DNA of 34,716 bases from a virus (lineage: Duplodnaviria > Caudoviricetes). The notes beneath the pieces were generated by a model. The model was not told where the DNA came from. It worked only from the letters and a program-made list of their open reading frames with translations, and did not search any database. Positions within the stretch are counted from its first letter, which is position 1; each line of letters opens with the position of its first letter. The translations under genes were made by a program, and so were the position numbers. Shown one piece after another: positions 3,879 to 34,716 of the stretch. The stretch covers positions 1 to 34,716 of IMG/VR virus record IMGVR_UViG_3300020398_000009; one strand, given 5' to 3'.

Positions 3879-5090
3879 CTACGCCTGCACTCGGCATGCG
3901 AGTTCAGGACGCAACGTCGCCCACCCGAAAAGCACATCCAGCCTGCACGGGAACTTATCAGTCGAGATGTCGTAATCGCGGATCATGCGAATCGACATGC
4001 CCAACTGACTATCGCTCACACGCGCAGCCATGTCTGTCCCTTGCGGGAGTGGCAAGTCAGCCATCGCCAACGTAAACGCATCACGGTGATGCGCGAGACC
4101 CTGTGGGGTCTGTGTGCTGGCAGCACCGATAATGGTCAACGCCGCGTTATCCACCGGCAATGCATCAACGGTCTGGAACGCACCGCTGCTGGTAATGGCC
4201 GGACTGATTGCCGCAGTGAGGTTGCCTGAACCATCCGAACTGACGTCGGCGGTCACCACAAACTGCTGCAACTGCGTCGTGGATTGACGCGACTGTGGGT
4301 TGACAGAGTTCACGTTGGCAATCGTGAAGACGTCACCCTGCTTCAACCGCGCTGCGGCTGACGCTGTCCACCCATCAGTGACCAGTGACGTCGCACCACT
4401 GGTCGGCACGCCATTGCAAAGCGGCGTGCCACCCAAGGGGCCAACCGTGTGTGTGTTGACGTTCTGATCCATGAGCCAGTCGAAACCAGCCGCCGTGCCC
4501 ATCGTCCCCTTGCGATACTGAGTCGCCAGAGCCGAGGACTGCTGAAACAGACCCTTCAACGCATCCACAATCGTGGCTTGCATCAACGGCGTGATCACCA
4601 CCGACCGCTGTCCGTCCATCGGTGCGGAGTTGTCATCCAACTTCACACCCGCTGAGAGATACGTCAGCAACGCCGTTGGTGTCGTACCCGGTGTCCCCAC
4701 GCTGTTATAGATGTCCTTATACAGCGCCAATCCAGCATTATCGATCTTGTTCGCCACCGTGGCAGTCGCCGGAGTGATGAACCGCTGACTAAAGTCATCA
4801 ATCTTCAAAGCGAGGTCTTCCGAGGTAAACGTGATATCGACACCAAACTGCGTGTCGAGCGTCACAGCGACCTGGGTTTCTGTCGCGTCTTCGATTGAAA
4901 TCGCCGTTCCTGTCCGACCAATGTAGCGCGGTGGTTTTCTGACGTTCAGGACGGTGCCGATTTTCGCGCCTTCGACCCCGAACTTACTGTCGTATTGACG
5001 ATTGACACCTTTGGTAAAGGCGAGGTTGTTCTCCAGTACACGAAGCGCCTCCCTCGTGATCATGGAGATCGTAAGCAAGGTATTCGCCAT
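3879..5090 (-). CDS. Major capsid protein (P22 coat family)
   Basis: MANTLLTISMITREALRVLENNL...NRQYD..F...GAKIG; C-terminal RLDVLFGWATLRPELACR. Confidence 0.93.
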   Translation of the reverse strand: MANTLLTISMITREALRVLENNLAFTKGVNRQYDSKFGVEGAKIGTVLNVRKPPRYIGRTGTAISIEDATETQVAVTLDTQFGVDITFTSEDLALKIDDFSQRFITPATATVANKIDNAGLALYKDIYNSVGTPGTTPTALLTYLSAGVKLDDNSAPMDGQRSVVITPLMQATIVDALKGLFQQSSALATQYRKGTMGTAAGFDWLMDQNVNTHTVGPLGGTPLCNGVPTSGATSLVTDGWTASAAARLKQGDVFTIANVNSVNPQSRQSTTQLQQFVVTADVSSDGSGNLTAAISPAITSSGAFQTVDALPVDNAALTIIGAASTQTPQGLAHHRDAFTLAMADLPLPQGTDMAARVSDSQLGMSIRMIRDYDISTDKFPCRLDVLFGWATLRPELACRVQA

Positions 5091-6229: not shown

Positions 6230-8635
6230 CTAAATATCTTCTGGCAGCGGAGGTGCGACTCCAGGCGGACCCCCCGGCACAACTCCCTGCGGACCTCCCG
6301 GAGGAACTCCAGGCGGAACTCCAGGCGGACCCCCCGCAGGGACTCCCTGCGGGACTCCCCGTGGACCTGCCTGTGGAGGAGCGTCGACCGGTGGCATCAT
6401 AGCAATGCGCTCATAACGGTCCTCTTGACGATTTGAAATTTCCACATTTCTCGAAATGAGCTGTTCCAGACGACCGATTTCCGTTTGCAGAATCTCACTC
6501 GCCCGTTGCTGTTCAATCTTCGCCAAAGCCCGAGAGCTCTCTCCCTGCTGTTTGATCTGTTCCAGTTGCAACCTGGCTTGCAAGTCACGCTCCTGCGCCG
6601 CCGCGTCAGCCGCAAGTTCACGCTCCTTGATCGCCACTTGCGCCTGCCGTTTGACCTGATCAGTACGCAACGCTTCCTGCGCCTGTTGATAGGCTTTCTG
6701 AATCTGCTTCAACTGTCCGTCGATCTGCTGCATGCGCGCCTGGACTTCAGGTGGAATATCACGCTGGTCCACATCGTCCTGCAACTGTGGCGGCAGCATT
6801 TTCTTTAACCGTGCCGCCACCTGCTTCGACCCAGGCCAATCCATGTTCTCGGCCAACAGGTCCCCGATCATCGGGAACGCATTGGGATACGCCTGGACAA
6901 ACTGCACCAAGGAGTCTACCGCTTCCTGTCGACGTGTCTGGAAGCTCGGTCCCACAGACACGCTGACGTCGTATCGTCCAACACCAAGGTTATAGATGCC
7001 TTCGATGCCCGGTGGCATCTGCTCCACATCGACGTCCGATGGGGCATTCTCTGCACCCGCAAACACCATCACGTTTCGACGCTTTTCATCGTCACCGACA
7101 ATCCGAATCACCCGTGCAATGTCATAAATGTTCGGCAGTAAATCCACCACGATGCGACCGACCTGACGAATCGCCCGACCAAGGTTGTCCAGATAATGCG
7201 AGTTCGCCATCTCGTCCTGCTGCTGACGTGTACGCAACGCCTTGCCGGATTCCTGTGGACCGCGCACGCCCAACGACGCATCGTTGAAACCGCCAGTCGA
7301 TTTGAGGTCGTTGTCGCTTTGGGCAATCGCCATCGTCATCGCCTGAATCGGCGGTTCCCAACTCTGACGCTGGGGCGGCGGTGCCAGCTGCCCACTGAAG
7401 GTTTTCGGTTTGTATTCCAGATACGGGAAGTTCCGCACGTTCGCGTTTTCCCACTTGGCCTCATGGCCCTCAAACTGCCCTTCAGCCGCCACAAACGGCG
7501 CACGCGGAGCCAACGCAATCATCTCGGTTTCCGCCGAAACCCAGTAGTTATACATCCGTTGCGGGTCCTTCGCGTCTCTCACAATCCCCCGGTAATCCTT
7601 CACGCCGTTGATGTTAATCTCGTCACCCAACACCGGCACCAGCGGGATATACTTCCCAGGCCAGTCCAGCCCCCCCACCTTGAGCGCATCGCCCTCCAGT
7701 ATTTCAGCGCCGTTGATGAGCGCCCACTTCACGGCACGATTCGTCACTTCACGCTCGGCCAATAACGTCACACCCTCGGGAAGCGCCGTCACGTCAGCAT
7801 AGGTCTCGCGTGGCACTTTCTGCTTCGACCCATCGGGCATGAGCAGAATCACAACCTGCTCACGGGTTTCCTCCACGTAGAAATACTCCGCAATCCGCAC
7901 ACTGCCTTCCGGCATCCACTCCGCCTGTTGATTCCCTGACGAGGTGAATTCCGACAGGTTCACGAGGTCCGACAAGGGATAGCGGAAGGTATATTCATCC
8001 TTGGGAAGATCCTCCACGACAAACCCATACCTCGCGTCAGACCCGTCCGGCTTCTGTGCCGAAGGGTCCATATAGACCGAGAACGGATTCCCGACGCGCT
8101 CGATACGGATTTCCTGATTCAGATCCAGTGGGTCATCATCCACATAATCCGTAATCACACGAATATACCCACGCCCCATCGTGGCCTGATGGTCCCCAGC
8201 CGTACTGTAGGCCACATCAGCATCCGATTTGTTTTCGATATGCCGCACCACCCCTTGGATGACTTCCGCCACATCCTGGTCAGCATCATCACCCGTGGGA
8301 TTCACGGCAATCGCCGGACGAGACGCTCGTTGGTTATTCGTGACCTGCCGAATAAACTGCGGAATGCGATTCACCGTCAGACAGGGACGACTGTCAGCGT
8401 TTCGCATCGTTTTCACCTGCTCAGGCCACTGCTCGGAGGCACGAAACTTTAAGTCCTCCAGCATGTTCTTCCGAAGCTCGGCCTCGGCAGAGACGACAGT
8501 ATGAAAGCGCATGTGCGCGAGACGAAGAAACTCATCCCGCTCCGTCTGAAGCACCGACTCGACGTCATCGATCTCCACGTCCTCTTCCACCACCACCACC
8601 TGATACCCACCACCGGTTGGATCATCATGTGGCAT
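6230..8635 (-). CDS. Portal protein (P22-like) with Pro/Gly-rich tail
   Basis: EDLKF..QWP, RPCLTVNRI, GIVRDAKDPQRMYNYW, GVGRYDVSVSVGPSFQTRRQEA, MDWPG; C-terminal coiled coil then GVPPGGP repeats. Confidence 0.93.
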   Translation of the reverse strand: MPHDDPTGGGYQVVVVEEDVEIDDVESVLQTERDEFLRLAHMRFHTVVSAEAELRKNMLEDLKFRASEQWPEQVKTMRNADSRPCLTVNRIPQFIRQVTNNQRASRPAIAVNPTGDDADQDVAEVIQGVVRHIENKSDADVAYSTAGDHQATMGRGYIRVITDYVDDDPLDLNQEIRIERVGNPFSVYMDPSAQKPDGSDARYGFVVEDLPKDEYTFRYPLSDLVNLSEFTSSGNQQAEWMPEGSVRIAEYFYVEETREQVVILLMPDGSKQKVPRETYADVTALPEGVTLLAEREVTNRAVKWALINGAEILEGDALKVGGLDWPGKYIPLVPVLGDEININGVKDYRGIVRDAKDPQRMYNYWVSAETEMIALAPRAPFVAAEGQFEGHEAKWENANVRNFPYLEYKPKTFSGQLAPPPQRQSWEPPIQAMTMAIAQSDNDLKSTGGFNDASLGVRGPQESGKALRTRQQQDEMANSHYLDNLGRAIRQVGRIVVDLLPNIYDIARVIRIVGDDEKRRNVMVFAGAENAPSDVDVEQMPPGIEGIYNLGVGRYDVSVSVGPSFQTRRQEAVDSLVQFVQAYPNAFPMIGDLLAENMDWPGSKQVAARLKKMLPPQLQDDVDQRDIPPEVQARMQQIDGQLKQIQKAYQQAQEALRTDQVKRQAQVAIKERELAADAAAQERDLQARLQLEQIKQQGESSRALAKIEQQRASEILQTEIGRLEQLISRNVEISNRQEDRYERIAMMPPVDAPPQAGPRGVPQGVPAGGPPGVPPGVPPGGPQGVVPGGPPGVAPPLPEDI

Positions 8636-8885
8636 ACGTCTGTCCTCCAGGCACCGATGCCGCGCGTGCAGTCAACTGCTGAAACGCCTGACGATAATCG
8701 TCGCGCGTAAACCCATGCCCGGACCAGTCGACCCTGGCACGTCTCACGAATTCATCCCGACCCGTCGCCACAATCGTATGGAGCGTGGGGGCGTCAATCT
8801 GATTCAGAAGCGACTCCACCGCCATCTTGAGAAACTGCTGCTTGTTGAGAATGATATCTTCGGGATGACTCATTAGTGCATCCAT
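8625..8885 (-). CDS. Hypothetical protein
   Basis: Fills the gap between terL-C and portal with overlapping ends; start may be the ATG at 8873. Confidence 0.5.
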   Translation of the reverse strand: MDALMSHPEDIILNKQQFLKMAVESLLNQIDAPTLHTIVATGRDEFVRRARVDWSGHGFTRDDYRQAFQQLTARAASVPGGQTYAT

Positions 8886-9628
8886 CCCAACGTATCCGAC
8901 CCCACGTCAATATACCGCACGCGAGGTAAGTCCTGCGCGGACGACGGTTCCACCGTCATCCACTCCACGCCCGACACAATCGCATACCGCGTGGCGTCCA
9001 TTAAGTGATCATTCTGCTTCACAATACGCCCCTTCAAGTCACGACGATAGAGACGGAATTCCTCCAACCACCCGTGACACGACTGAAAGACCTTCAGTTG
9101 TCCAGTACTCAGCAGCCGCCAGACGTCCAGAATCCCAGCCTCCACCGCATTCGGAGCCACGTCCAGAAACAATCCCTGATCCACGTAGTCGTCAATCAAC
9201 ACCGTGCCATCGCGCTGGCTGCGTCCGCGTGAGGCAGGGTCAATGCGTCCCGGTATCCAGACCCCACGCGACCGCACCGCATCCGCATGAATCGACGGCT
9301 CCGCTTCGCCGCGCTTGTGAATGGCATACACATACCGGACGCCAGTTTCACGGTCGTGCGCCAACCAGACAACCGCCGTGCAGTTCCACCCGACATCCAT
9401 CCCATACCCACGCGCATAGTGCGCGGGGAGATCAAAATCGGCAATGACAATGTCAGTTTCCGGCACAGGATAAATCGCCCCGGACCCCAGTTGCGGCACC
9501 CCTTTGGTTCTGGCGTCTCGCTGATGGGGCGGAATCGAGGCGAAGAGTTCCGCCTTCTCCGTCCCACTAAGATGCGGGACATCGTCCCAATCCGCCATCA
9601 CCACGAATTTCGACATGCCGTCTCTCAC
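8873..9628 (-). CDS. terL: Terminase large subunit, C-terminal part (lid segment + RNase H-like nuclease)
   Basis: WDDVPHL...RDARTKGVPQLGSGAIYP, GMDVGW, IDPASRGR, EEFRLYRRD, DHLMDATRY; own RBS AGGAG. Confidence 0.9.
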   Translation of the reverse strand: MRDGMSKFVVMADWDDVPHLSGTEKAELFASIPPHQRDARTKGVPQLGSGAIYPVPETDIVIADFDLPAHYARGYGMDVGWNCTAVVWLAHDRETGVRYVYAIHKRGEAEPSIHADAVRSRGVWIPGRIDPASRGRSQRDGTVLIDDYVDQGLFLDVAPNAVEAGILDVWRLLSTGQLKVFQSCHGWLEEFRLYRRDLKGRIVKQNDHLMDATRYAIVSGVEWMTVEPSSAQDLPRVRYIDVGSDTLGWMH

Positions 9629-9640
9629 CTCTCCTACGGA

Positions 9641-9988
9641 TTAAGTCACCTTTCCACGAAGATCATCGACCACCGCTGCAAGCGCCGCATGCGCGTTGCG
9701 TAACGCCACTTCAGCGTCGATCACCTCTCCCACGGCATGCGTCAACGTATGATTATTCATCAGGTCTCGGTTGGTCACGTCCTCGGCAATCGTCAACAAC
9801 GTCCCGGTCAGGTCAATCGCCCGCTGGCGCTTGGTCGCACTCGGGTGATCAATCACGATGTCCTCGACAATCTGAATGGACGAGGACACCGCCTTGAGGA
9901 TGATGCCGGCCGGTCCTCCCACCAGCGGCACAAACGGCATCAAGCCTTTCAGCACGCCACTAATCTTTCTCCACGAGAGTCCCATCAT
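9641..9988 (-). CDS. Hypothetical protein inserted in terL, holin-like amphipathic N-terminus
   Basis: RBS AAGGAG; hydrophobic LMPFVPLVGGPAGIILKAV followed by helical region. Confidence 0.6.
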   Translation of the reverse strand: MMGLSWRKISGVLKGLMPFVPLVGGPAGIILKAVSSSIQIVEDIVIDHPSATKRQRAIDLTGTLLTIAEDVTNRDLMNNHTLTHAVGEVIDAEVALRNAHAALAAVVDDLRGKVT

Positions 9989-10001
9989 GTCTCCTTGTCC
10001 A

Positions 10002-10406
10002 TCATGCTTTACTTATCCGACGAAACGGCGAGTCGAGGCCGCGTCCACCAAGAGACCTCGGCGGTCGCGTCAGAGGTTGGGCGCTGGACTCCAACTGTGC
10101 CGTCCACTCCACGCGCCGACGCACACGCTCAGTAAACTGTGTCACATCCATCCCAGCCCCGCTTGTCCATAAGCGTAATATCGGATCAGACGCATCCTGA
10201 AGCCAGCGACGTGTGACCAGAAACTCTCGTTGCTCTCTCTCCGACCACGCCGACATCCGACACACCGTCACCCGATGCCCCACCTCCACCAGTTCGGCAT
10301 CACGAATCGCCCGTTCCAACACCGCCACTGCAAGTTTGGTAATCCCCGCGAGACGGTAGCGATGCGTATCGACGTCACTCAACGGTACGATTCCATCCCC
10401 GTTCAC
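10002..10406 (-). CDS. Conserved-type hypothetical phage protein inserted in terL
   Basis: GTG start overlaps terL-N stop (GTGA); LAVAVLERAIRD...RRWL...AGMD pattern resembles a recurrent uncharacterised phage family. Confidence 0.6.
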   Translation of the reverse strand: MNGDGIVPLSDVDTHRYRLAGITKLAVAVLERAIRDAELVEVGHRVTVCRMSAWSEREQREFLVTRRWLQDASDPILRLWTSGAGMDVTQFTERVRRRVEWTAQLESSAQPLTRPPRSLGGRGLDSPFRRISKA

Positions 10407-11200
10407 GACGGGAGTCGTCCTCCAGGTAAAAATTCCAGCACCAACGGCGTCAGCCCCTGAAGCGGCGTAAACGTCAGCATCAACATCCCTCCCACAAAGT
10501 CCGGGGTCTGCGCGGTTCTGAGGAGACACTCAATGTAAATATCGTCCGGCGGCTCTTCATCCATCCAGATCCCGTGCTTCTTCGTGCCTTGAAACGCCTC
10601 CCGACGCTGGTCGTAGCTCTTAAGGCCTAACTCCGAAAGACACGGTGCCCCATGCACCTGCTCGACATGCTTCACCCACACCGTCTCAACCGCATCCGTC
10701 ACTCCCGGCTTGCGTGAGAAATGTTCAATCAGATGTCTCGGAATAAACCCGGAGCCAATCGCATTCATCGGCCCCAACAATTCAAGCTGGCCAATGTCAC
10801 GCACCGTCTTCGCCGTATCCCCAGCAGCCCAGAAAGACACCGGCTCCTCGAATTTGCGGCCCTGCCACCAGGAGGGATACAGGCCCGTCAGATGCGCGAC
10901 CGTTTCATACGCGCCCGCCTGTGTCTTGCCAATCCGGTTGGCCGCGATCATGAGACGCTCACGGGCATGGCTTTGAAAGAAGGCGCTGTGCTTCCGATAC
11001 AGCACACGGCACATCCCCACATGGTCGTCCACATCCGTGGAGTCCGGGTCACAGTCGGACGTGCAGTCAGGAAAATACCGCTCGAAACGCCCCTGCTGTC
11101 GCGTCTTCCGCGTCTCCGCAATCGCCGCCAGTGTGGCATCCGGCACCTCGTCCTGCGCCATAAGCCCTTCGTCTGCCGCTGTCATGTGTTCACCGGCCAT
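10403..11200 (-). CDS. terL: Terminase large subunit, N-terminal ATPase part
   Basis: Walker A AANRIGKT, KSYDQRREAFQG, Walker B GIWMDEEPP, coupling motif LTFTP; stops at LPGGRLPS. Confidence 0.9.
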   Translation of the reverse strand: MAGEHMTAADEGLMAQDEVPDATLAAIAETRKTRQQGRFERYFPDCTSDCDPDSTDVDDHVGMCRVLYRKHSAFFQSHARERLMIAANRIGKTQAGAYETVAHLTGLYPSWWQGRKFEEPVSFWAAGDTAKTVRDIGQLELLGPMNAIGSGFIPRHLIEHFSRKPGVTDAVETVWVKHVEQVHGAPCLSELGLKSYDQRREAFQGTKKHGIWMDEEPPDDIYIECLLRTAQTPDFVGGMLMLTFTPLQGLTPLVLEFLPGGRLPS

Positions 11201-11201
11201 C

Positions 11202-11384
11202 TCAGCCTTTCGGCTTCATCCCACGCAACGTCTTCGCCAGCCGCGCGCGTTGGCCCAGCTTGCCTCCCGCCTTCGCCGCACGATTCAACGTCTTCGCCGG
11301 GATCGTCTGCCCCGCCTTCACACCTAAACTCGTCCGCAACGCCCCAGGTTTCTTAATCGCGTCCTGAATCCATCGCTTAGCCAT
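11202..11384 (-). CDS. Small basic phage protein
   Basis: MAKRWIQDAIKKPGALR..LG...IPA..L..AAK..G..G.RARLA.TL resembles a recurrent family near terminases; RBS GGGAGG. Confidence 0.75.
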   Translation of the reverse strand: MAKRWIQDAIKKPGALRTSLGVKAGQTIPAKTLNRAAKAGGKLGQRARLAKTLRGMKPKG

Positions 11385-11403
11385 GCCCTTCCCCTCCCGT
11401 CTT

Positions 11404-11464
11404 AACCGTCAAAGTGTCAACCGCCCACCCCCAGTTTCATTCGGTGCTTGACGGTTTGACGCTT
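11404..11464. repeat. Inverted pairs of GTCAA-core repeats
   Basis: AACCGTCAA AGTGTCAA ... TTGACGGTT TGACGCTT, intergenic. Confidence 0.55.
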
Positions 11465-11494
11465 GTGTGACATCCCCCCCATAAAGCAATTAAC

Positions 11495-11704
11495 CTAACC
11501 TTCAACATCATCCCTAATTTGAACCTCGCCCGTCTTACTATTGACACATCTCAGCGCATACGTGGCCCGAATCGGATGAGTCAAAACCCTCTCGCATTCC
11601 CACGTTCCGTTGTCCTCTTCGATTCCTGTTGGGGCAGCAGGAGCACACCCAGAACACCCGTCTACCGGAAAGGCAATCGCTATCAATAACCACAAAACTC
11701 TCAT
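11495..11704 (-). CDS. Putative small exported/lipoprotein
   Basis: Hydrophobic N-terminus ending in GCSGC; second Cys pair downstream. Confidence 0.55.
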   Translation of the reverse strand: MRVLWLLIAIAFPVDGCSGCAPAAPTGIEEDNGTWECERVLTHPIRATYALRCVNSKTGEVQIRDDVEG

Positions 11705-11707
11705 GAC

Positions 11708-12022
11708 TCAGACGCCATGTAAATCTATCCAGTCCTTGAGCCTCACCACGACAACCGCGTCATCGTCTCGCTTGCCAGGCTCTTTCCAGACCACGACCCC
11801 CGTGGCTGAGCCAGTCTCGATAGACTGGTCATCAGCTTGCCCGGAAATCCCACGTAGCCACTCTCTGAGATACCCAGGCATCCGCTGCCGGAGCTTCAAC
11901 TGATACACAAACGGGCCTGCGTCGACGTCAACCCCGTCCCGCTCTCCCGTCACCGGGATACGTCGACCGCCAACCTTCCTCGCAATCCGTCGCTCAAATG
12001 CCTTCCACGACCTGTCAGCCAC
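11708..12022 (-). CDS. Holliday-junction resolvase-like PD-(D/E)xK nuclease
   Basis: GTG start after GAGGG: MADRSWKAFERRIAR..GGRR...DV...YQLKLR...VVVRLKDW. Confidence 0.65.
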   Translation of the reverse strand: MADRSWKAFERRIARKVGGRRIPVTGERDGVDVDAGPFVYQLKLRQRMPGYLREWLRGISGQADDQSIETGSATGVVVWKEPGKRDDDAVVVVRLKDWIDLHGV

Positions 12023-12614
12023 GATCACCCTCACTGCAGAATCCGACAATGACGACACGCCCATCGCGTGAGGATGTCCCCCAGCCGTCATGGGGATACC
12101 GGCTATGGAAGAGGTCTGCCGGATACACCGCCAGCCGGTTCCGCTGCATCGGCACCACCTGCTGTACGCGCCAGCGGGATTCGTCCATCGACTCCTCAGC
12201 CAGCAGCCGGTCGTGTTCAGCAGCAGTGCCGGAAAACCGGTCCCCCCATGTCTCGTGCGTGAAAAAGGCCGTCCCGTAGCACGTCCCGTTATCAGAGTCC
12301 TGCGGAGTATCCTGGCTATACCAGACCCACGCATGGCTCGCGCCCATCCCCTGGTCCGAATGAATCCGCACCCCACTGTCCACCGTCGCCGTGGAACATC
12401 GGGCGAAACTCAGACCGTGAGACGACACCGGCATCATCCGCTCCACTTCCGTGCGGAGCACCTGACGGATCAGCGTGGGAATCGCCGCGATATTGAACGT
12501 CCCGTCAATCACCGTAAACGACGCCTCGTCGCGCAGCCAGTCCACCACCGCGTCCGGGTCGTCAAAGATGTCGTCTCTCCAAACCGGTGTCTCACAAGCT
12601 CGTCTCTCAGACAT
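12015..12614 (-). CDS. 2OG-Fe(II) oxygenase-like protein (DUF6445-like)
   Basis: DDIFDDPD N-terminus, HSD (HxD), GTAFF.H, NRLAVYPADLFHS (distal His), conserved Arg in GRVV. Confidence 0.75.
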   Translation of the reverse strand: MSERRACETPVWRDDIFDDPDAVVDWLRDEASFTVIDGTFNIAAIPTLIRQVLRTEVERMMPVSSHGLSFARCSTATVDSGVRIHSDQGMGASHAWVWYSQDTPQDSDNGTCYGTAFFTHETWGDRFSGTAAEHDRLLAEESMDESRWRVQQVVPMQRNRLAVYPADLFHSRYPHDGWGTSSRDGRVVIVGFCSEGDRG

Positions 12615-12643
12615 TGAACGTGAAGATGGCTTTTATGAACTTG

Positions 12644-12841
12644 TCACTTCCGCTTCACAAACTCCACGAGTAACGCCATCAGCGCCACGCCCGCCAACGT
12701 CCCAGCCTCGCCGTTCAGGGCCACGTCGTAGGTCGTTGCCGTCAGTAACTGTAACAGCAGTAACGTCAGACAGACGACACAGACACGCGCTAATCCGATC
12801 AGCGACATCCAAACCGCTGGCGTGGGACGAGACTTCGCCAT
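12644..12841 (-). CDS. Small two-TM membrane protein
   Basis: Two hydrophobic stretches, basic C-terminus KRK. Confidence 0.55.
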   Translation of the reverse strand: MAKSRPTPAVWMSLIGLARVCVVCLTLLLLQLLTATTYDVALNGEAGTLAGVALMALLVEFVKRK

Positions 12842-12849
12842 CCGTCACC

Positions 12850-12963
12850 CTACTTCGTATACGCTGAGGCCGGTTTCGTGTAGGTGACCTTCTTGCCCGT
12901 CTTCTTCGCTGCCGCTTTGGCCTTGCTCACACTGCTAAACGTCTTGCGTCCGACTTTTGGCAT
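12850..12963 (-). CDS. 37-aa Lys-rich basic peptide
   Basis: Hand translation MPKVGRKTFSSVSKAKAAAKKTGKKVTYTKPASAYTK; RBS AAGGGAG; below the ORF-track cutoff. Confidence 0.65.
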   Translation of the reverse strand: MPKVGRKTFSSVSKAKAAAKKTGKKVTYTKPASAYTK

Positions 12964-12970
12964 CGTTGCT

Positions 12971-13130
12971 CCCTTCCCTTCACTTCAGTTCCCTTCTGTT
13001 CAGTTCCCTTCTGTTCAGGCGGAAGTTCCGGGAACTTCCGGGAACTTCCGGGAACTTCCGGGAACTTCCGGGAATTTCCCGTAATTTCCGGGAACTTCAC
13101 GTCATGGAACTGAATTTCCGGGAAAAATTG
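12971..13130. repeat. Iteron/origin-like tandem repeat array
   Basis: Eight 10-bp units at 13021-13100 (four exact GGAACTTCCG; the first two units form the palindrome GGAAGTTCC-G-GGAACTTCC). Also 15-bp TTCAGTTCCCTTCTG x2 at 12984-13013 and inverted GGAACTGAA at 13106-13114. Confidence 0.85.
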
Positions 13131-13249
13131 GCACGCTGGATTCGTCGTCATTCCCCTGTCCTGGCGGTTTTTCTGACACCCCTTCTGCATTGTAGTGACC
13201 CTGTCTCGCTTTCTGCAACTGTGGGAATCCGTGGACGTGGACTTTAGGA

Positions 13250-13310
13250 TGGGTCCTATAGGTATAGGGGGGTGCCTCGGGATCGAAAGATTGTTACGGG
13301 GGGGGTGGCA
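13250..13310. other. Candidate packaging (pac/terminus) region
   Basis: G-runs (GGGGGG, GGGGGGGG) and CCTATAGG palindrome immediately downstream of terS. Confidence 0.3.
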
Positions 13311-13329
13311 GCCCAGGAAGCGGTCACAG

Positions 13330-13953
13330 CTAGGCTGGATTCAGCGCCTTCTGACGACCCTGGCCCGTCACCTCGCGTTGCAGCTCACCGATGATAGTGT
13401 GGGCTGTCTCCAGCCGGTCGAGCTGCTCGTCGCTCATGCTCGCTATCACCTCTGGGGAGAAGGTGACGATATGTCCGTGTAAGTGCATGTGCGTCTCGCC
13501 GCCCTGAAGCATCCCCAGGTGCTTGGCGAGTAGAGATAGTGCAGACGTCCTGTCAGCAAGACGCACACTAGACAGTGCAGTCTGTCCGTCCCGGTCAGTG
13601 AGCGAGAAGGACGACAGGCTCGATGCCACGTCCTCTGGTAGGTCTTGTAATGGCCTGAGCTTACCCGTGTCAGGGTCGACAAGTTCCCTGACGTCAGCGA
13701 AGGCAAGCCGGCTCACGGCAGCAAGCACTGACTCTTGGGTGAGCGCCATTGCATCAGCTCGACGAGTCAGCAGACGCTTCAGCGCTCTCTGAACCCGAAC
13801 ATCAGCCAATAGCCGGGGACCCGCAGATTGACTACTCTCTGCGCTGCAATCTGGATACGCCCGTCGGTACGCAGACGAGGCATTGAAGTCAACGCAATAG
13901 GCGTCTATGAAGTCTTTTTGTCGCCCGTTCAGCGGCCGAAGAGGTGCGGTCAT
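13330..13953 (-). CDS. terS: Terminase small subunit
   Basis: LNGRQKDFIDAYCVDFNASSAYRRAY, RLLADVRVQ, RLAFAD, DRTSALSLLAKHLGM; TAATAT 6 nt upstream suggests leaderless mRNA. Confidence 0.88.
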   Translation of the reverse strand: MTAPLRPLNGRQKDFIDAYCVDFNASSAYRRAYPDCSAESSQSAGPRLLADVRVQRALKRLLTRRADAMALTQESVLAAVSRLAFADVRELVDPDTGKLRPLQDLPEDVASSLSSFSLTDRDGQTALSSVRLADRTSALSLLAKHLGMLQGGETHMHLHGHIVTFSPEVIASMSDEQLDRLETAHTIIGELQREVTGQGRQKALNPA

Positions 13954-15546: not shown

Positions 15547-16167
15547 ATGGCGAGCACACACACAGCAACAATAGAAGTGAAGAAAGCACCGAAGAATTGG
15601 AAGCCGTTCCGGCTTCTCCGAGTCACGAAATGCAACGGCACATGCTGCTACGTCCAATGGTCGACGACTAGGGATGGACGGGCGGATCGACGATCGAGAA
15701 GGCCGGACGATCGGACGTGGGATGAGGCGCTGAAGATGCAAGGCCTGCACGCACAGTGGACTCAGCAGACGTCTCGATCCAAACGGACTGAGCGTAGAGT
15801 GCAGTCTATTCTGGACGACGTGAATGGCCGGTCGACACGGCATGTCTTCACGAGTCCAGACGAGATCCTACAGTGCATGGACATTGCCGAGTGCAGGCGA
15901 GTCACACTGAGCCTCACGAAGCGCGACTCGCTCGGTATGCGAGTGCGGTGTCACTCTGGCCTGAGCGTGTCGAAGAGCTATAAATACCAACGGACGGGAA
16001 CAGAGGTCGTCCTGATCTATCGTCGCTCCGGGTGGTACATCGAGGCTATCAAGTCAATTCAGCTATACCCGACGGAGGGCGGCCTGGTCGACCCGATCCT
16101 GACGCCAGGTCAGGCCAAGCTTGCACTGGACGCCTACCAGCGCACACAGTTCAGCCTGCAACAGTGA
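15547..16167 (+). CDS. Hypothetical early protein (MASTHTATI...)
   Basis: RBS AGGAGG; first 9 aa identical to 15210 ORF. Confidence 0.7.
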   Translation: MASTHTATIEVKKAPKNWKPFRLLRVTKCNGTCCYVQWSTTRDGRADRRSRRPDDRTWDEALKMQGLHAQWTQQTSRSKRTERRVQSILDDVNGRSTRHVFTSPDEILQCMDIAECRRVTLSLTKRDSLGMRVRCHSGLSVSKSYKYQRTGTEVVLIYRRSGWYIEAIKSIQLYPTEGGLVDPILTPGQAKLALDAYQRTQFSLQQ

Positions 16168-16192
16168 GCAACACTCAAAGGAGGACCACTAG

Positions 16193-16408
16193 ATGAGTAG
16201 TATTAAAAAAGCGGAGCTTGAACGCCAAGTGCGAATGCTGAATAACGTCACAGACGGCGACTACAGCCTCGACTGGGCGTATGGCGGCGTCAGAGTTGAA
16301 CGGGCGGGCGGTAGCGTGGACGTCACGGAGCGAGGGTCGAAGCGTGCCGTCCACGCCATGCTACGTGGGATGATCCATGTGGCCGTTTTGGAAAATCTGA
16401 ACCCCTAA
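16193..16408 (+). CDS. Hypothetical early protein
   Basis: RBS AAGGAGG; YSLDWAYGG motif. Confidence 0.7.
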   Translation: MSSIKKAELERQVRMLNNVTDGDYSLDWAYGGVRVERAGGSVDVTERGSKRAVHAMLRGMIHVAVLENLNP

Positions 16409-16441
16409 AACATCGATCCAATTCAAACAGGAGGGCGCGTC

Positions 16442-16675
16442 ATGACGAGACAAGCGGTTAAAACTGATCTTGTGACTGAGGATGGTGAGCGCATCTACGA
16501 CCTCGACCCGCTCGCTTCTGAATTGTGGGCGATTGCAGGCCCGGACGGCCTGGACCCAACCACGATCTGGCCTGATGATCTGCCGACGGGCTGCCGATGG
16601 CTGAGCGACGACGAATGGGCAGAGAGCGAGACAGACGCTAGTGCCGAAACCACCAAGCAGCACTGCACTGGTTGA
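16442..16675 (+). CDS. Acidic hypothetical protein
   Basis: RBS AGGAGG; D/E-rich. Confidence 0.65.
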   Translation: MTRQAVKTDLVTEDGERIYDLDPLASELWAIAGPDGLDPTTIWPDDLPTGCRWLSDDEWAESETDASAETTKQHCTG

Positions 16676-16710
16676 CAGTGATACTGTCATCGTGCTAAGC
16701 TACATTTACT
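16672..16710 (+). promoter_or_regulatory. Early promoter, copy 1
   Basis: TTGACA-N18-TAAGCT with extended TG; palindrome TGACAGT-gat-ACTGTCA; 29/35 identical to 27496-27530. Confidence 0.7.
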
Positions 16711-16729
16711 GTCTCGGGAGGGGCAGATC

Positions 16730-16939
16730 ATGAAACATCTAATGACACCGGAAGAATGCAAAGTTTGGACGTGGATCTCAGGACTCACCACCTCGAAAGA
16801 GCTACAGGACGCTACGACATACGTCGACGGACTGAGCGCACTCATCGCGAAGCGTCACGATGCGATCAGGAAGCGTCACGATGCGAGGAAGGAGAGACTC
16901 TTGAGTCTGTTGACCGTGCCCGAGAACTGCGACTTCTGA
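16730..16939 (+). CDS. Hypothetical protein
   Basis: RBS GGGAGG; internal tandem duplication KRHDA(IR)KRHDA. Confidence 0.6.
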   Translation: MKHLMTPEECKVWTWISGLTTSKELQDATTYVDGLSALIAKRHDAIRKRHDARKERLLSLLTVPENCDF

Positions 16940-16978
16940 CCGTAACTACGGAAACTTTGACCGTAGCTACGTAAACGT
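16937..16978. repeat. Tandem 21-bp repeat with internal palindromes (operator-like)
   Basis: TGACCGTAACTACGGAAACTT / TGACCGTAGCTACGTAAACGT, each containing CGTAnnTACG. Confidence 0.65.
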
Positions 16979-17012
16979 TGAGTCTTGATCATTCAGTCTC
17001 TAGGAGGGACTA

Positions 17013-17825
17013 ATGCGAACCGAACCCACGACGTCAGACAGAAACACGCACTTTGCAGCCTTGATTCACGCGGCAGTCACTGAGCCTGGAGTGCTGGCCG
17101 ATTGCTACAAACTTTTTCACAGCTACTCGCCGTGGAACGTGTTTTGGGCAATGGGTCAGGCTCTCGCCTTGGGAATTGAAGTCGGGCCCCTCTCCACCTA
17201 CAAGCGGTGGAAGGCGCTTGGCCGGACAGTCAAGAAGGGCTCTAAGGCAATTTTTATGACCATGCCACGTTTGAAGTTTGCACCAGACCCCGAGGACCCA
17301 ACCAAGAAAATTCCTGCCGGCCAGTATTTTATCTCTGTGCCTAGGTGGTTTTTTCTGTCGCAGACCGACGGTCCAGACGTGGCCGTCGAAGCCGGCGATA
17401 GTGTGCAGTGGGACAAGGACATGGCGCTCAAGGCTCTTGAGATTACCGAAGAGACCTTCAGCCTAGCTGACGGGAATTGCGGTGGATACGCGCACGTCAC
17501 GGGAGACAAAAAAGGCACCATTGCAGTCAATCCGGTACACCCGCACCCCTATCGGATTTACTTCCACGAAATGGCCCATGTGCTGATGCACAGTGAGACT
17601 GAGACCGTCAAGGCTGAGGACAGACCGCCGTCAAACATTCGAGAGCTTGAGGCCGAACTCACCGCCTATATCTGCGCTCAGACCTTGGGCCTTGATGGAG
17701 CGTCAGAATCTCGCGGATACATCCAGCAGTGGTTCACTCACAAGACTGTTCCTGAGACGTCAGCCAAGTCTGTCTGCGAGACGGCGGCAAAGATTCTCGC
17801 TGCTGGGCAGTCGAGAAGACAATAA
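17013..17825 (+). CDS. ardC: ArdC-like antirestriction protein (ssDNA-binding N-domain + zincin-like domain)
   Basis: YSPWN, TYKRWKALGRTVKKGSKAI, F.LSQTDG, HEMAH (HExxH), RELEAE..AY, SRGYIQQW. Confidence 0.82.
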   Translation: MRTEPTTSDRNTHFAALIHAAVTEPGVLADCYKLFHSYSPWNVFWAMGQALALGIEVGPLSTYKRWKALGRTVKKGSKAIFMTMPRLKFAPDPEDPTKKIPAGQYFISVPRWFFLSQTDGPDVAVEAGDSVQWDKDMALKALEITEETFSLADGNCGGYAHVTGDKKGTIAVNPVHPHPYRIYFHEMAHVLMHSETETVKAEDRPPSNIRELEAELTAYICAQTLGLDGASESRGYIQQWFTHKTVPETSAKSVCETAAKILAAGQSRRQ

Positions 17826-17865
17826 GCCGACGCCTGGGACCACCACAGAGACCCCGGAGAAGACT

Positions 17866-18171
17866 ATGTCATTCCCACTCTACACAGTCATCGTCTCAAG
17901 CCAGCACGATGATTTACGTGACTGGCATAACAACGGAAGTCCGTCAAACACCGTTCAGCACTACGCGCTCAGCGTGAGCGGTGCTCGGCTGATCGCCTAT
18001 CGAGAATTCGTCTATCTTGGACGACCACCGTCTATCGGACACGACCAACTAATCTGGACTGAGCAGGACGACAACGACGTTGTGCTCGCGCAGCGTGACA
18101 CCTGGCTTGCTGACCACGGCTACTCGATCACAATACGTTATCTGTGCGACCTCCGTGAACCAGAGAGCTGA
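17866..18171 (+). CDS. Hypothetical protein
   Basis: RBS GGAG upstream of ATG 17866. Confidence 0.55.
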   Translation: MSFPLYTVIVSSQHDDLRDWHNNGSPSNTVQHYALSVSGARLIAYREFVYLGRPPSIGHDQLIWTEQDDNDVVLAQRDTWLADHGYSITIRYLCDLREPES

Positions 18172-18181
18172 GACATTCGTA

Positions 18182-18853
18182 ATGACACGAGAGACCACCA
18201 CCGGGCTCCGAGAGGCGCACCTAACCTGGCTACTACGGTTTGCTGGGAGCGACCTGCCAAAGTTCCGAAGTAAGGAGTCCAAGGAAGCTCGCGATCAGAT
18301 CAAAGAGACAGTCGTCGGCGAGGTGTGGCACGCGAAGCGGCTGCTATTACATCGGTGGTTGACTCCGATGGGTCGCGGTGAGCAGCAGTCGGTGATTGAG
18401 GAGCGTCTTGACGAGTCACGGTTCAGGCGACAGCTCAGGCTACCGACTGAGGATGAGGTCCGACAGCTCCACACGTGGTTGGTGCGCGACCTGGCACAGA
18501 CTCGACCACCGGGCATGGAACTGAATCGGTCAATCAACACGAACAGCGTGTTCCTGCCCATCTCGTACGCGAGGAGTCCGTATCAGCCGGTCGTGGTGCG
18601 TAAGAGCGACGACTACAAGCGGTTGCTGTTTGTGAAAGATGAAGACGTGTATGTCGCCTCGGCCTTTGAGCTGCTAAGTGCGTTCGGTGATCGAGTTCTG
18701 CGCTGCGAGGACCAAGACTGTGACCGGTTGTTCGTTCGGATACGCCAGATGAGGTATTGCTCGGATCAATGTTCCGCTCGGGTTCGCATGCGGAAGCACC
18801 GTATCGAGAACAAGGATGCTGTGAACGCGAGAAGGCGAGAGAGATATCGGTAG
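18182..18853 (+). CDS. CGNR-type zinc-finger protein
   Basis: C-terminal RCEDQDCDRLFV...RYCSDQCSARVRMRKHR. Confidence 0.75.
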   Translation: MTRETTTGLREAHLTWLLRFAGSDLPKFRSKESKEARDQIKETVVGEVWHAKRLLLHRWLTPMGRGEQQSVIEERLDESRFRRQLRLPTEDEVRQLHTWLVRDLAQTRPPGMELNRSINTNSVFLPISYARSPYQPVVVRKSDDYKRLLFVKDEDVYVASAFELLSAFGDRVLRCEDQDCDRLFVRIRQMRYCSDQCSARVRMRKHRIENKDAVNARRRERYR

Positions 18854-33447: not shown

Positions 33448-34716
33448 TTAGTGATAGAGCGGATCGTTATCGTAATACTGCCGAGCCAAGTCAATCATAT
33501 CGTTCCATAACTCCTGCTCCTCATCGCCGCGCTCCTTCGCTGTCTTATTGTCAAATTTCTCATATAGGTCGTTAATACGCGACCGATAGAGAGACAGCAT
33601 GGTTCGCGTGAACTTGATTAGCGGCTCTTTACTGAGAAGGTCCCTGTGGTCACGATAATCTTCCATCCATTCTTTCTCGCGTCCACCCTCCATCTTAATC
33701 CTCATGTCACGTTTCACCCCATCAAGTTCATTCGCTTCCTCGTAAAAGTCCACGAGCGACCTGGCACTCCCACCTGAAGAAGTCGGACGGAACAACGCTC
33801 GTAATCCCCACAAACGGGTCATGGGCGTGCCTTTTTCTGGAACAGGCGGTCGCACTAACTGGGCAGCGATAGGATTCTCAATTCCGAGGAACTCCTCAGT
33901 TCTCATGATCATATCAGTGGTATCCGTCGCATACTTGCCAATCGCGGCAGTATAACCCTGAATCAGATGGTCGATATGAGCCGCACCGAGGAACGGTCGA
34001 CCAAAGAGCTTCGACAGTTGACGCGCTGTCTCAGACGTATACCTATTGGACTGATACTCAGGGCTGATGACATTCCAGTCATACGGACTGACAATCGGCG
34101 CTCGACGGAAGATAGAGCGGTTGAACCCAGCCTCAACGATAGGGAGAATGATGGTAGGAATCATGGTTCCTATCAAGCTTATTGCAGAGTCTTCATCTGG
34201 GAAGATTTCCTCGATGAACTTCTTGCCGTCCTGTCCTTTATAGACGTAGTCCAAGGCAGATTCAGGGATGTTGCCGAAGAGATGCGCGAGTTCCCACGGC
34301 TTTGGAATCGTAAACCACTCGTGGTTTTTATGTTTCCCTAACGCAAACCACCAGTAGGCATCCTTCTGATACTGTGAAAGTTCCTCGTATTCAGGATCGT
34401 CCTTATTGAAATACCACGCCAACATAGAAAGCAGCGTGATACTACTAAGTGCCTTGACCGTCGACCCGACAGGATCTCTGGTAAAGACCTCCACGAGACG
34501 TGCTTTCCCCTGAAGACCGGCATTAAAGAACGCCTTCATCTGGTTCATCTGGCGTCCAAAACTTCCCATCCGCTTGAAGTTCACCGTCACTTCAGCGGCC
34601 CCATACGCGGCTTGAGCGCGTGCCTCTTCTGGTGAGAACCCCTCCCGCTCCAGCCGTTTGACAGAGAGCATGAAGTCACCTACACGAGATGAGTTTTCCA
34701 TAAACTCTTGAAATCG
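33448..34716 (-). CDS. C-terminal part of giant ejection/polyvalent protein with LPD38-like domain (5' truncated)
   Basis: Frame open to window end; EN..R..F, EVTVNF.R.G, FFNAGLQG, YEEL..Y.KD.YW, IPKPWE, PIVE...N..IF...PIV, IDHLIQGY. Confidence 0.75.
   Translation of the reverse strand, partial: RFQEFMENSSRVGDFMLSVKRLEREGFSPEEARAQAAYGAAEVTVNFKRMGSFGRQMNQMKAFFNAGLQGKARLVEVFTRDPVGSTVKALSSITLLSMLAWYFNKDDPEYEELSQYQKDAYWWFALGKHKNHEWFTIPKPWELAHLFGNIPESALDYVYKGQDGKKFIEEIFPDEDSAISLIGTMIPTIILPIVEAGFNRSIFRRAPIVSPYDWNVISPEYQSNRYTSETARQLSKLFGRPFLGAAHIDHLIQGYTAAIGKYATDTTDMIMRTEEFLGIENPIAAQLVRPPVPEKGTPMTRLWGLRALFRPTSSGGSARSLVDFYEEANELDGVKRDMRIKMEGGREKEWMEDYRDHRDLLSKEPLIKFTRTMLSLYRSRINDLYEKFDNKTAKERGDEEQELWNDMIDLARQYYDNDPLYH

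Follow-up and report, generated by a model that had tools for sequence, protein, structure and literature searches.

Two-Part and Interrupted Terminases

Large terminases are usually regarded as obligate single chains. In the stretch of DNA analyzed here (IMG/VR virus record IMGVR_UViG_3300020398_000009, 34,716 nucleotides (nt), hereafter the window), the large terminase (TerL) of a P22-like phage is encoded by two genes, terL-N for the ATPase core and terL-C for the lid and the nuclease, with two further genes nested between them. The window is a linear 34.7-kb fragment, around 90% complete, of an uncultured phage from seawater.

Two terL-related genes have been noted in the cluster AT phages of Arthrobacter (PMC5513430); in the record of one of these, KellEzio (KU647626.1), five genes separate gp4, labelled 'ATPase domain', from gp10, labelled 'nuclease domain'. 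The novelty that the original prediction attached to a two-gene TerL was therefore overstated, as the arrangement with nested genes was already annotated in cultured phages. Like the window, KellEzio carries TerL as two co-oriented genes separated by unrelated ones, its ATPase gene encodes around 260 amino acids (aa) and inspection by eye places the lid in the nuclease gene. Nonetheless, cluster AT phages are siphoviruses of Actinobacteria, whereas the window carries a P22-type head module from seawater, and no homology to the window family is detectable (hhalign probabilities of 0.1 and 0.2). Because no such similarity is found, the KellEzio split is taken as an independent event. Inspection by eye also assigns the strand that follows the motif III helix to gp4 in KellEzio, while in the window that strand starts the second chain and the break lies one strand earlier. 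A RusA-like gene directly follows the ATPase half in KellEzio.

The one-chain P22-type enzymes (P22 gp2, PaP3 and EBPR podovirus 1; Terminase_6N plus Terminase_6C) share all catalytic motifs with the window in colinear order, and their phages share P22-like portal, coat and head-closure genes with it. They differ in comprising a single gene, as do 132 of the 203 surveyed entries, which are fused across the loop where the window is cut. Essential enzymes in pieces are represented by NrdA-a/b of Aeromonas phage Aeh1, which flank mobE, and by the split gp43 of T4-like phages (both as told in PMC2677866). Here too, two peptides are made from a single operon, in which another gene lies between the two parts, and no splicing takes place. 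The window gap, however, contains no homing endonuclease gene and its cargo belongs to a pool of many small, shuffled genes; only the distant loci L040, L042 and L087 have such a nuclease or its remnant. Interrupted terL genes have been reported in ICP1 and Campylobacter phage IBB_35 (PMC10448857, PMC3322345), a terminase with a split intein is known (PMC2677866), and UL15 of herpesviruses is spliced (PMC13595911). In these cases the terL reading frame is likewise interrupted, sometimes by nested genes, but it is rejoined at the RNA or protein level, whereas the window shows no intron or intein feature. A comparable clade-wide two-part gene, for RNA polymerase, was reported in pelagiphages of the HTVC019P group (10.1101/672428). 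In PMC9632790, no support was found for a split TerL in the gene transfer agent of Caulobacter. No study of a two-chain P22-type TerL was found in the main texts of open-licence papers, although a description may exist.

Two Genes for One Large Terminase

As the original prediction held, two intact, co-oriented genes lie between the two halves; all four are on the minus strand (Table 1). TerL-N contains the ATPase core of a P22-like large terminase with Walker A (AANRIGKT), Walker B (GIWMDEE), motif III (TFTP) and the next helix, lacks the last ATPase strand and the lid, and ends at FLPGGRLPS-TGA as was read from the sequence. TerL-C has the N-terminus MSKFVVMADWDDVPHL and comprises, in order, the last ATPase strand (KFVVMA), the lid subdomain, the hinge and an RNase H-like nuclease (GMDVG ... 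NDHLMDA), matched from residue 43 by the P22 nuclease structure 4DKW (E 3.5e-22). Aligned to P22 gp2, TerL-N corresponds to residues 55-243 and TerL-C to 249-467, colinearly and at 36-37% identity. Because the halves take up gp2 in this way, only a loop is lost and nothing else is missing; in fused relatives, a loop that is short and variable connects these motifs. Walker A, Walker B with its catalytic Glu and motif III are invariant or nearly so among 78 aligned N proteins, as in ASCE (additional strand, catalytic E) ATPases. In the nuclease (63 sequences), the acidic residue D74 is invariant and D203 and D207 are present in at least 90%, as in RNase H-like nucleases. P22-type enzymes have both domains on one polypeptide; in the window, seven in-frame stops and 786 nt separate them.

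Table 1. Features of the split terL locus and its flanking head genes in the window.
Feature	Positions	Strand	Description
TerL-N	10403..11200	-	265 aa; PF03237, E 2e-10
Cargo 1	10002..10406	-	open reading frame (ORF) for a 134-aa conserved phage protein; GTG start overlaps TerL-N stop as GTGA
Cargo 2	9641..9988	-	ORF for a 115-aa helical protein; AAGGAG upstream
TerL-C translation initiation region	9617..9640	-	AGGAGAGGTG; GAGGTG 9 nt before ATG
TerL-C	8873..9616	-	247 aa from ATG; PF17289, E 2.6e-13
terS	13330..13953	-	PF03592, E 4.7e-23; around 2.1 kb upstream of terL-N, with small genes between
P22-like portal	6230..8635	-	PF16510, E 1.8e-171; downstream of terL-C

The distance of 786 nt, filled by the two ORFs, runs from the TerL-N stop to the ATG at 9616. 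The earlier count of around 775 nt extended to an in-frame GTG at 9628, and the AGGAG named then as ribosome-binding site is present (9635-9631, within AGGAGAGGTG). The ATG is nevertheless the likelier start on sequence grounds, because GAGGTG stands 9 nt before it and relatives start at the same position. The GTGA overlap through which the 134-aa ORF was predicted to be coupled was confirmed.

The Split as a Lineage Trait

A total of 203 loci (202 fetched and the window) were classified by script as fused (n = 132), split (n = 53) or C-half only (n = 18). One of these, L100, was wrongly scored as split, being fused at the loop and frameshifted after the lid; its removal leaves 52 split loci. 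It was kept as 'split' in the C tree and the tree-topology test below, and dropped from the count of distant splits (16 of 157, not 17). The loci with a C-half identity of at least 75% number 45, counting duplicates between collections and three copies of the window. Of these, 35 are split and 10 have no N-half on the contig; fused loci are absent. Hence, every close locus with an N-half on its contig (35/35) shows the same split, with shuffled cargo. The close relatives amount to 17 clusters at 95% identity, and their split loci form one clade with full support (Shimodaira-Hasegawa-like approximate likelihood ratio test (SH-aLRT) of 100) in both the C tree and the N tree (16 rows in the latter). 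The closest fused protein in the protein database is at most 63% identical. Of the best 120 short protein matches, which come without DNA context, 110 end 13-60 residues after TFTP (91 of these within 13-30) and only four carry the lid-start motif. The PHROGs family phrog_31467 (261 positions, 'unknown function') matches residues 59-258 of TerL-N (E 3.8e-54) and may be a family of N-only terminase halves.

For selection and gap analysis, a hand-dereplicated set of 21 loci (the window and 20 relatives) was used. The ratio of nonsynonymous to synonymous substitution rates (dN/dS) between the window and these relatives is around 0.04-0.18 for both halves, indicating strong purifying selection. 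In the first 44 codons of TerL-C, the proportion of nonsynonymous differences (pN) is 0.03-0.14 against 0.52-0.94 for synonymous ones (pS). The split of TerL is real, ancient, selected and recurrent.

Single contigs cross both junctions in the public runs X2 (9288-11466) and X6 (9287-11500), which are possibly the window's own source, and each junction is bridged by contigs in X13 and X15. No contig joint that skips the gap was seen (contigs only, from four of the 24 listed runs), and neither was a chimeric assembly. At least half of the words of the stretch are present in 19 of the 24 listed runs. No RNA run is listed for the stretch, which says nothing about expression. The window's genome (around 90% complete) contains one copy of each terL half and no second intact terL, and each of five relatives checked has a single nuclease half (genomes 34-87% complete). 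Relatives with other cargo occur in the same samples: their contigs in X6 and X15 agree with TerL-C as far as its ATG at 9616 and diverge exactly there. At 9848, all four runs have G where the window has A, at a third codon position of cargo 2.

Position of the Cut in the Motor

Sequence searches of the PDB with TerL-N returned nothing, and its placement stems from fold search only. The AlphaFold model of TerL-N is confident (mean predicted local distance difference test (pLDDT) score of 90.8) and aligns with residues 13-207 of P74-26 TerL (Z 16.1, root-mean-square deviation 2.8, 171 residues), as well as with Sf6 4-165, T4 124-305 and D6E 9-189. The lid starts at residue 221 in P74-26, 173 in Sf6 and 314 in T4 (PMC6379665, Table 1), which puts the break 8-14 residues ahead of the lid in all three and agrees with the original prediction that it falls inside the ATPase domain before the lid. 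Since TerL-N ends before the lid starts and the TerL-C profile meets D6E TerL from residue 201, TerL-C carries the last strand, lid, hinge and nuclease. Its own model is less confident (pLDDT 82); residues 1-10 (pLDDT 55) form no strand when folded alone, as expected if TerL-N were needed for their fold. The lid covers the ATP site and has been implicated in the hydrolysis of ATP, in contact between subunits and in mechanochemical coupling (PMC6379665, PMC5389665). Translocation is lost when the T4 domains are severed from each other at the hinge (PMC9958956), and the P22 nuclease in isolation fails to cleave DNA (PMC5389665).

The Gap and Its Cargo Genes

The gaps of the 21 loci vary from 132 to 1472 nt and are around 72-100% coding in a rough parse. 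The frame offset between the halves is 0, 1 or 2 in 11, three and seven loci, respectively, and TerL-N has tails of 1-39 residues that often run over the start of the next gene. No cargo family is common to all gaps. The cargo-2 family occurs in 11 of the 21 and also upstream of terL in L015, the cargo-1 family in seven (the window and six others, with homologues at 40-53% identity) and a small WWKSKTFW protein in nine. Because two of the cargo families are also found ahead of terL-N in other relatives, the gap exchanges genes with the terS-terL interval.

Cargo 1 has no family match in Pfam, PHROGs or NCBIfam and its nearest Atlas clusters are hypothetical. Cargo 2 was earlier called holin-like, a detail that the searches weaken: there is no match at E 0.01 or better in the same three databases. 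The nearest named Atlas cluster, PF09682 (LL-H holin; 0.80, 23% of members, template modelling (TM) score 0.50), stays under the bar, and the maximum Kyte-Doolittle hydropathy over 19 residues is 1.65 (1.2-1.8 across the family). An LL-H holin identity is therefore a weak lead. Repeats in the window gap are limited to one 30-nt pair at 77% and two weak inverted pairs, which were taken as chance. As the original prediction stated, the gap has no homing endonuclease or intein signature: neither is found by Pfam, and a homing endonuclease gene of the Aeh1 type is also absent from it by PHROGs and Atlas.

The second half appears equipped for a translation start of its own. In 17 of the 21 loci, the TerL-C start lies -9 to +4 nt from the stop of the upstream ORF. 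The duplex energy of the initiation region in the window is -9.1 kcal/mol with an anti-Shine-Dalgarno motif. Energies of -5 or lower occur in 19 of the 21 loci, at a cut-off without a shuffled control, and we relied on the coupling count instead. A scan of the window for promoters and terminators stayed at chance level.

Other small genes surround the split gene. An 86-aa ORF without a family match (8625-8885) lies between terL-C and the portal gene and overlaps both. The small genes between terS and terL-N (11202-13330) include a RusA-like resolvase (11708-12076, phrog_244). Pfam and PHROGs identify terS, terL, portal, scaffold, coat and head-closure genes in the P22-like head module on the minus strand. 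Elsewhere in the window, a block on the opposite strand (15547-18853, plus) encodes an ArdC-like anti-restriction protein (17013-17825) and a CGNR zinc-finger protein (18080-18853), and an LPD38-domain polyvalent protein (33448-34701) is probably cut by the contig end.

Two Chains or One

The first of the two options in the original prediction, a two-chain motor, is supported by the clade-wide split, the purifying selection on both halves, the variable coding gaps, the independent translation starts and the structural mapping of the break. The two-gene TerL of a cultured phage also speaks for it. The cut falls in a surface loop of the ATPase domain, and the two genes, both under selection, most likely yield products that reassemble without splicing into one working subunit of a P22-like motor. 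Both chains would be made from the late operon, with translation of the second either initiated at a ribosome-binding site of its own or coupled to the final cargo gene. The KFVVMA strand at the N-terminus of TerL-C would add to the ATPase sheet of TerL-N, the lid would close over the ATP site and each subunit of the ring would be a heterodimer. Because lid, hinge and nuclease remain on one chain, a break may be tolerated at this loop and not at the hinge between ATPase and nuclease.

Several points weigh against this two-chain motor. Both chains are predicted from their gene sequences. TerL-N folds confidently alone, and the strand addition is deduced from homology. The window's own TerL-C start belongs to the four of 21 that are not coupled, with GAGGTG 9 nt upstream instead. 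Synonymous distances are near saturation, which makes the dN/dS values rough, and the genomes checked for a second terL are only 34-90% complete. No cultured phage with a P22-type split appears among the INPHARED matches listed (for N, the 60 best and 60 spread of 418; for C, 60 of 417); the sole split record among them is the metagenomic genome MW202785.1.

A first alternative, which we consider improbable, is that both proteins are made but act largely apart or transiently, with TerL-N forming the ring and TerL-C docking for some steps or at less than one per subunit. The confident fold of TerL-N alone would fit, separate starts permit unequal synthesis, and nuclease activity is required only at initiation and termination (PMC9958956). 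Pumping without TerL-C is nonetheless unlikely given the lid's place over the active site and its implication in hydrolysis and coupling (PMC6379665, PMC5389665), and both strand and lid are strongly conserved.

Somewhat less probable still is an unrecognized self-splicing intron or a ribosomal bypass that removes the gap to give one TerL chain, as in terL of Vibrio phage ICP1. Spliced phage terL genes do exist (PMC10448857, PMC3322345). The halves share one frame in the window, and the TerL-C start ends in G, as group I introns do. Rfam, however, gives no match at E <1 over positions 8500-11600 of the window and none in 20 split loci, and the RNA of the window gap folds no better than shuffles (z +0.70). 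The gap borders are not conserved, no DNA is common to all gaps, and gaps down to 132 nt are wholly coding; among distant loci the halves even overlap. The start position is shifted in L012, and most starts are translationally coupled as described above. Group I and group II introns were rejected on these grounds, and the splicing element offered as the second option of the original prediction is not supported. A split intein in the manner of a fractured gene was likewise rejected: the facing ends hold no intein halves, Pfam detects no intein, TerL-N ends one residue after the conserved Pro and nothing precedes the terminase strand in TerL-C.

That these are defective or satellite-like phages whose terL is broken, or that the assembly is chimeric, is highly improbable and largely refuted. 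The clade is without a known isolate and the record is an incomplete linear fragment, but the contigs spanning or bridging the junctions, the recurrence of the stretch's words in most listed runs and the purifying selection across near-saturated synonymous distances all speak against decay or misassembly. Stop-codon readthrough or a recoded stop that yields one long protein with an insert has next to no probability: TerL-N, cargo 2 and TerL-C do share one frame in the window, yet the in-frame stops (5 TGA, 2 TAA) refute it and the halves are out of frame in 10 of the 21 loci.

Probable Repeated Origins and Possible Re-Fusion

The same loop is split in 16 of 157 more distant loci, with gaps of -8 to 1949 nt, and some of these halves overlap by 4-8 nt. 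The same applies to L087 (GenBank MW202785.1), which is annotated with two 'large terminase' coding sequences. Single-base errors could account for the distant splits without cargo in L073, L094, L115 and L167; L088 is backed by L025 and L155. The trees require 11 (C) and nine (N) changes between split and fused states, of which at least three are forced by strong branches, and an approximately unbiased (AU) test rejects one split clade (p 1.8e-53; 40 of 102 rows, chosen after the tree was seen). The truncated L148 was omitted from the trees, and the N tree also lacks L006, L007, L107, L114 and L100 as well as short or multi-piece rows. Against repeated origins, the trees are quick searches on short alignments, and recombination can mimic such a pattern. 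The break is likely to have arisen several times, in some lineages probably by insertion of a homing endonuclease, with the gap afterwards joining an accessory-gene zone around terL. In three of the distant gaps lies an endonuclease VII, an HNH nuclease or an HNH remnant (L040, PF02945, E 1.8e-18; L042; the remnant in L087). Because these are homing-type nucleases or remnants thereof, an Aeh1-like route is suggested for some origins. The remnant is an unannotated 46-aa ORF (L087:2864-3004) that fills the gap, is coupled at both ends and part-matches the HNH endonuclease family phrog_99 (E 4.7e-5), likely a relic of a homing endonuclease.

In a careful tree of 66 N-domains, with labels assigned from protein ends only, the window clade falls within a larger group of mostly N-only proteins (97/95). 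A fused subclade (100/99) is nested in the same group, a hint that a split gene was re-fused. This subclade (P0122, P0126, P0130, P0134, P0138 and P0142) has an unusually short junction with a shortened strand before a W-x-E-V-P-H-L motif.

Further deviations were observed in relatives. The long relative with the top score, P0121, has a fused TerL whose Walker A motif carries an intein (PF14890), at a site other than that of the split. Frameshifts elsewhere in terL occur in L100 (around 4001-4130, after the lid) and L086 (inside the ATPase), both single records and possibly errors. Distant split phages carry genes for a GroES-like co-chaperonin within the TerL-C gap or immediately ahead of it (L095:2840-3541, PF00166; L038:60-425).

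A bolder proposal, rather unlikely as a whole, would see in this loop of the P22-type terminase family a hot spot of reversible fission, with the ATP site completed in trans by the strand and lid of the nuclease chain, many splits and at least one re-fusion (the P0122 group). Separate chains might then set or change the ratio of ATPase to nuclease, and the lid-nuclease chain could be loaded or exchanged to switch between cutting and pumping.

Implications for the Packaging Motor

The two-gene TerL with nested genes in cultured phages tempers the interest of this locus. As terL is a standard phage marker gene, halves such as these are easily mistaken for fragments or pseudogenes. Packaging is abolished when T4 gp17 is cut at its hinge. 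In the P22-type family, natural cuts recur around 45 residues before that site, ahead of the lid. The recurrent site points to the covalent links that the motor needs (lid, hinge and nuclease) as opposed to those it can dispense with. If a natural two-chain motor is confirmed, ATPase cores and lid-nuclease chains could be mixed, labelled and titrated separately, and this would bear directly on the coupling of ATP hydrolysis to translocation through lid motion and on the switch of the motor to cutting.

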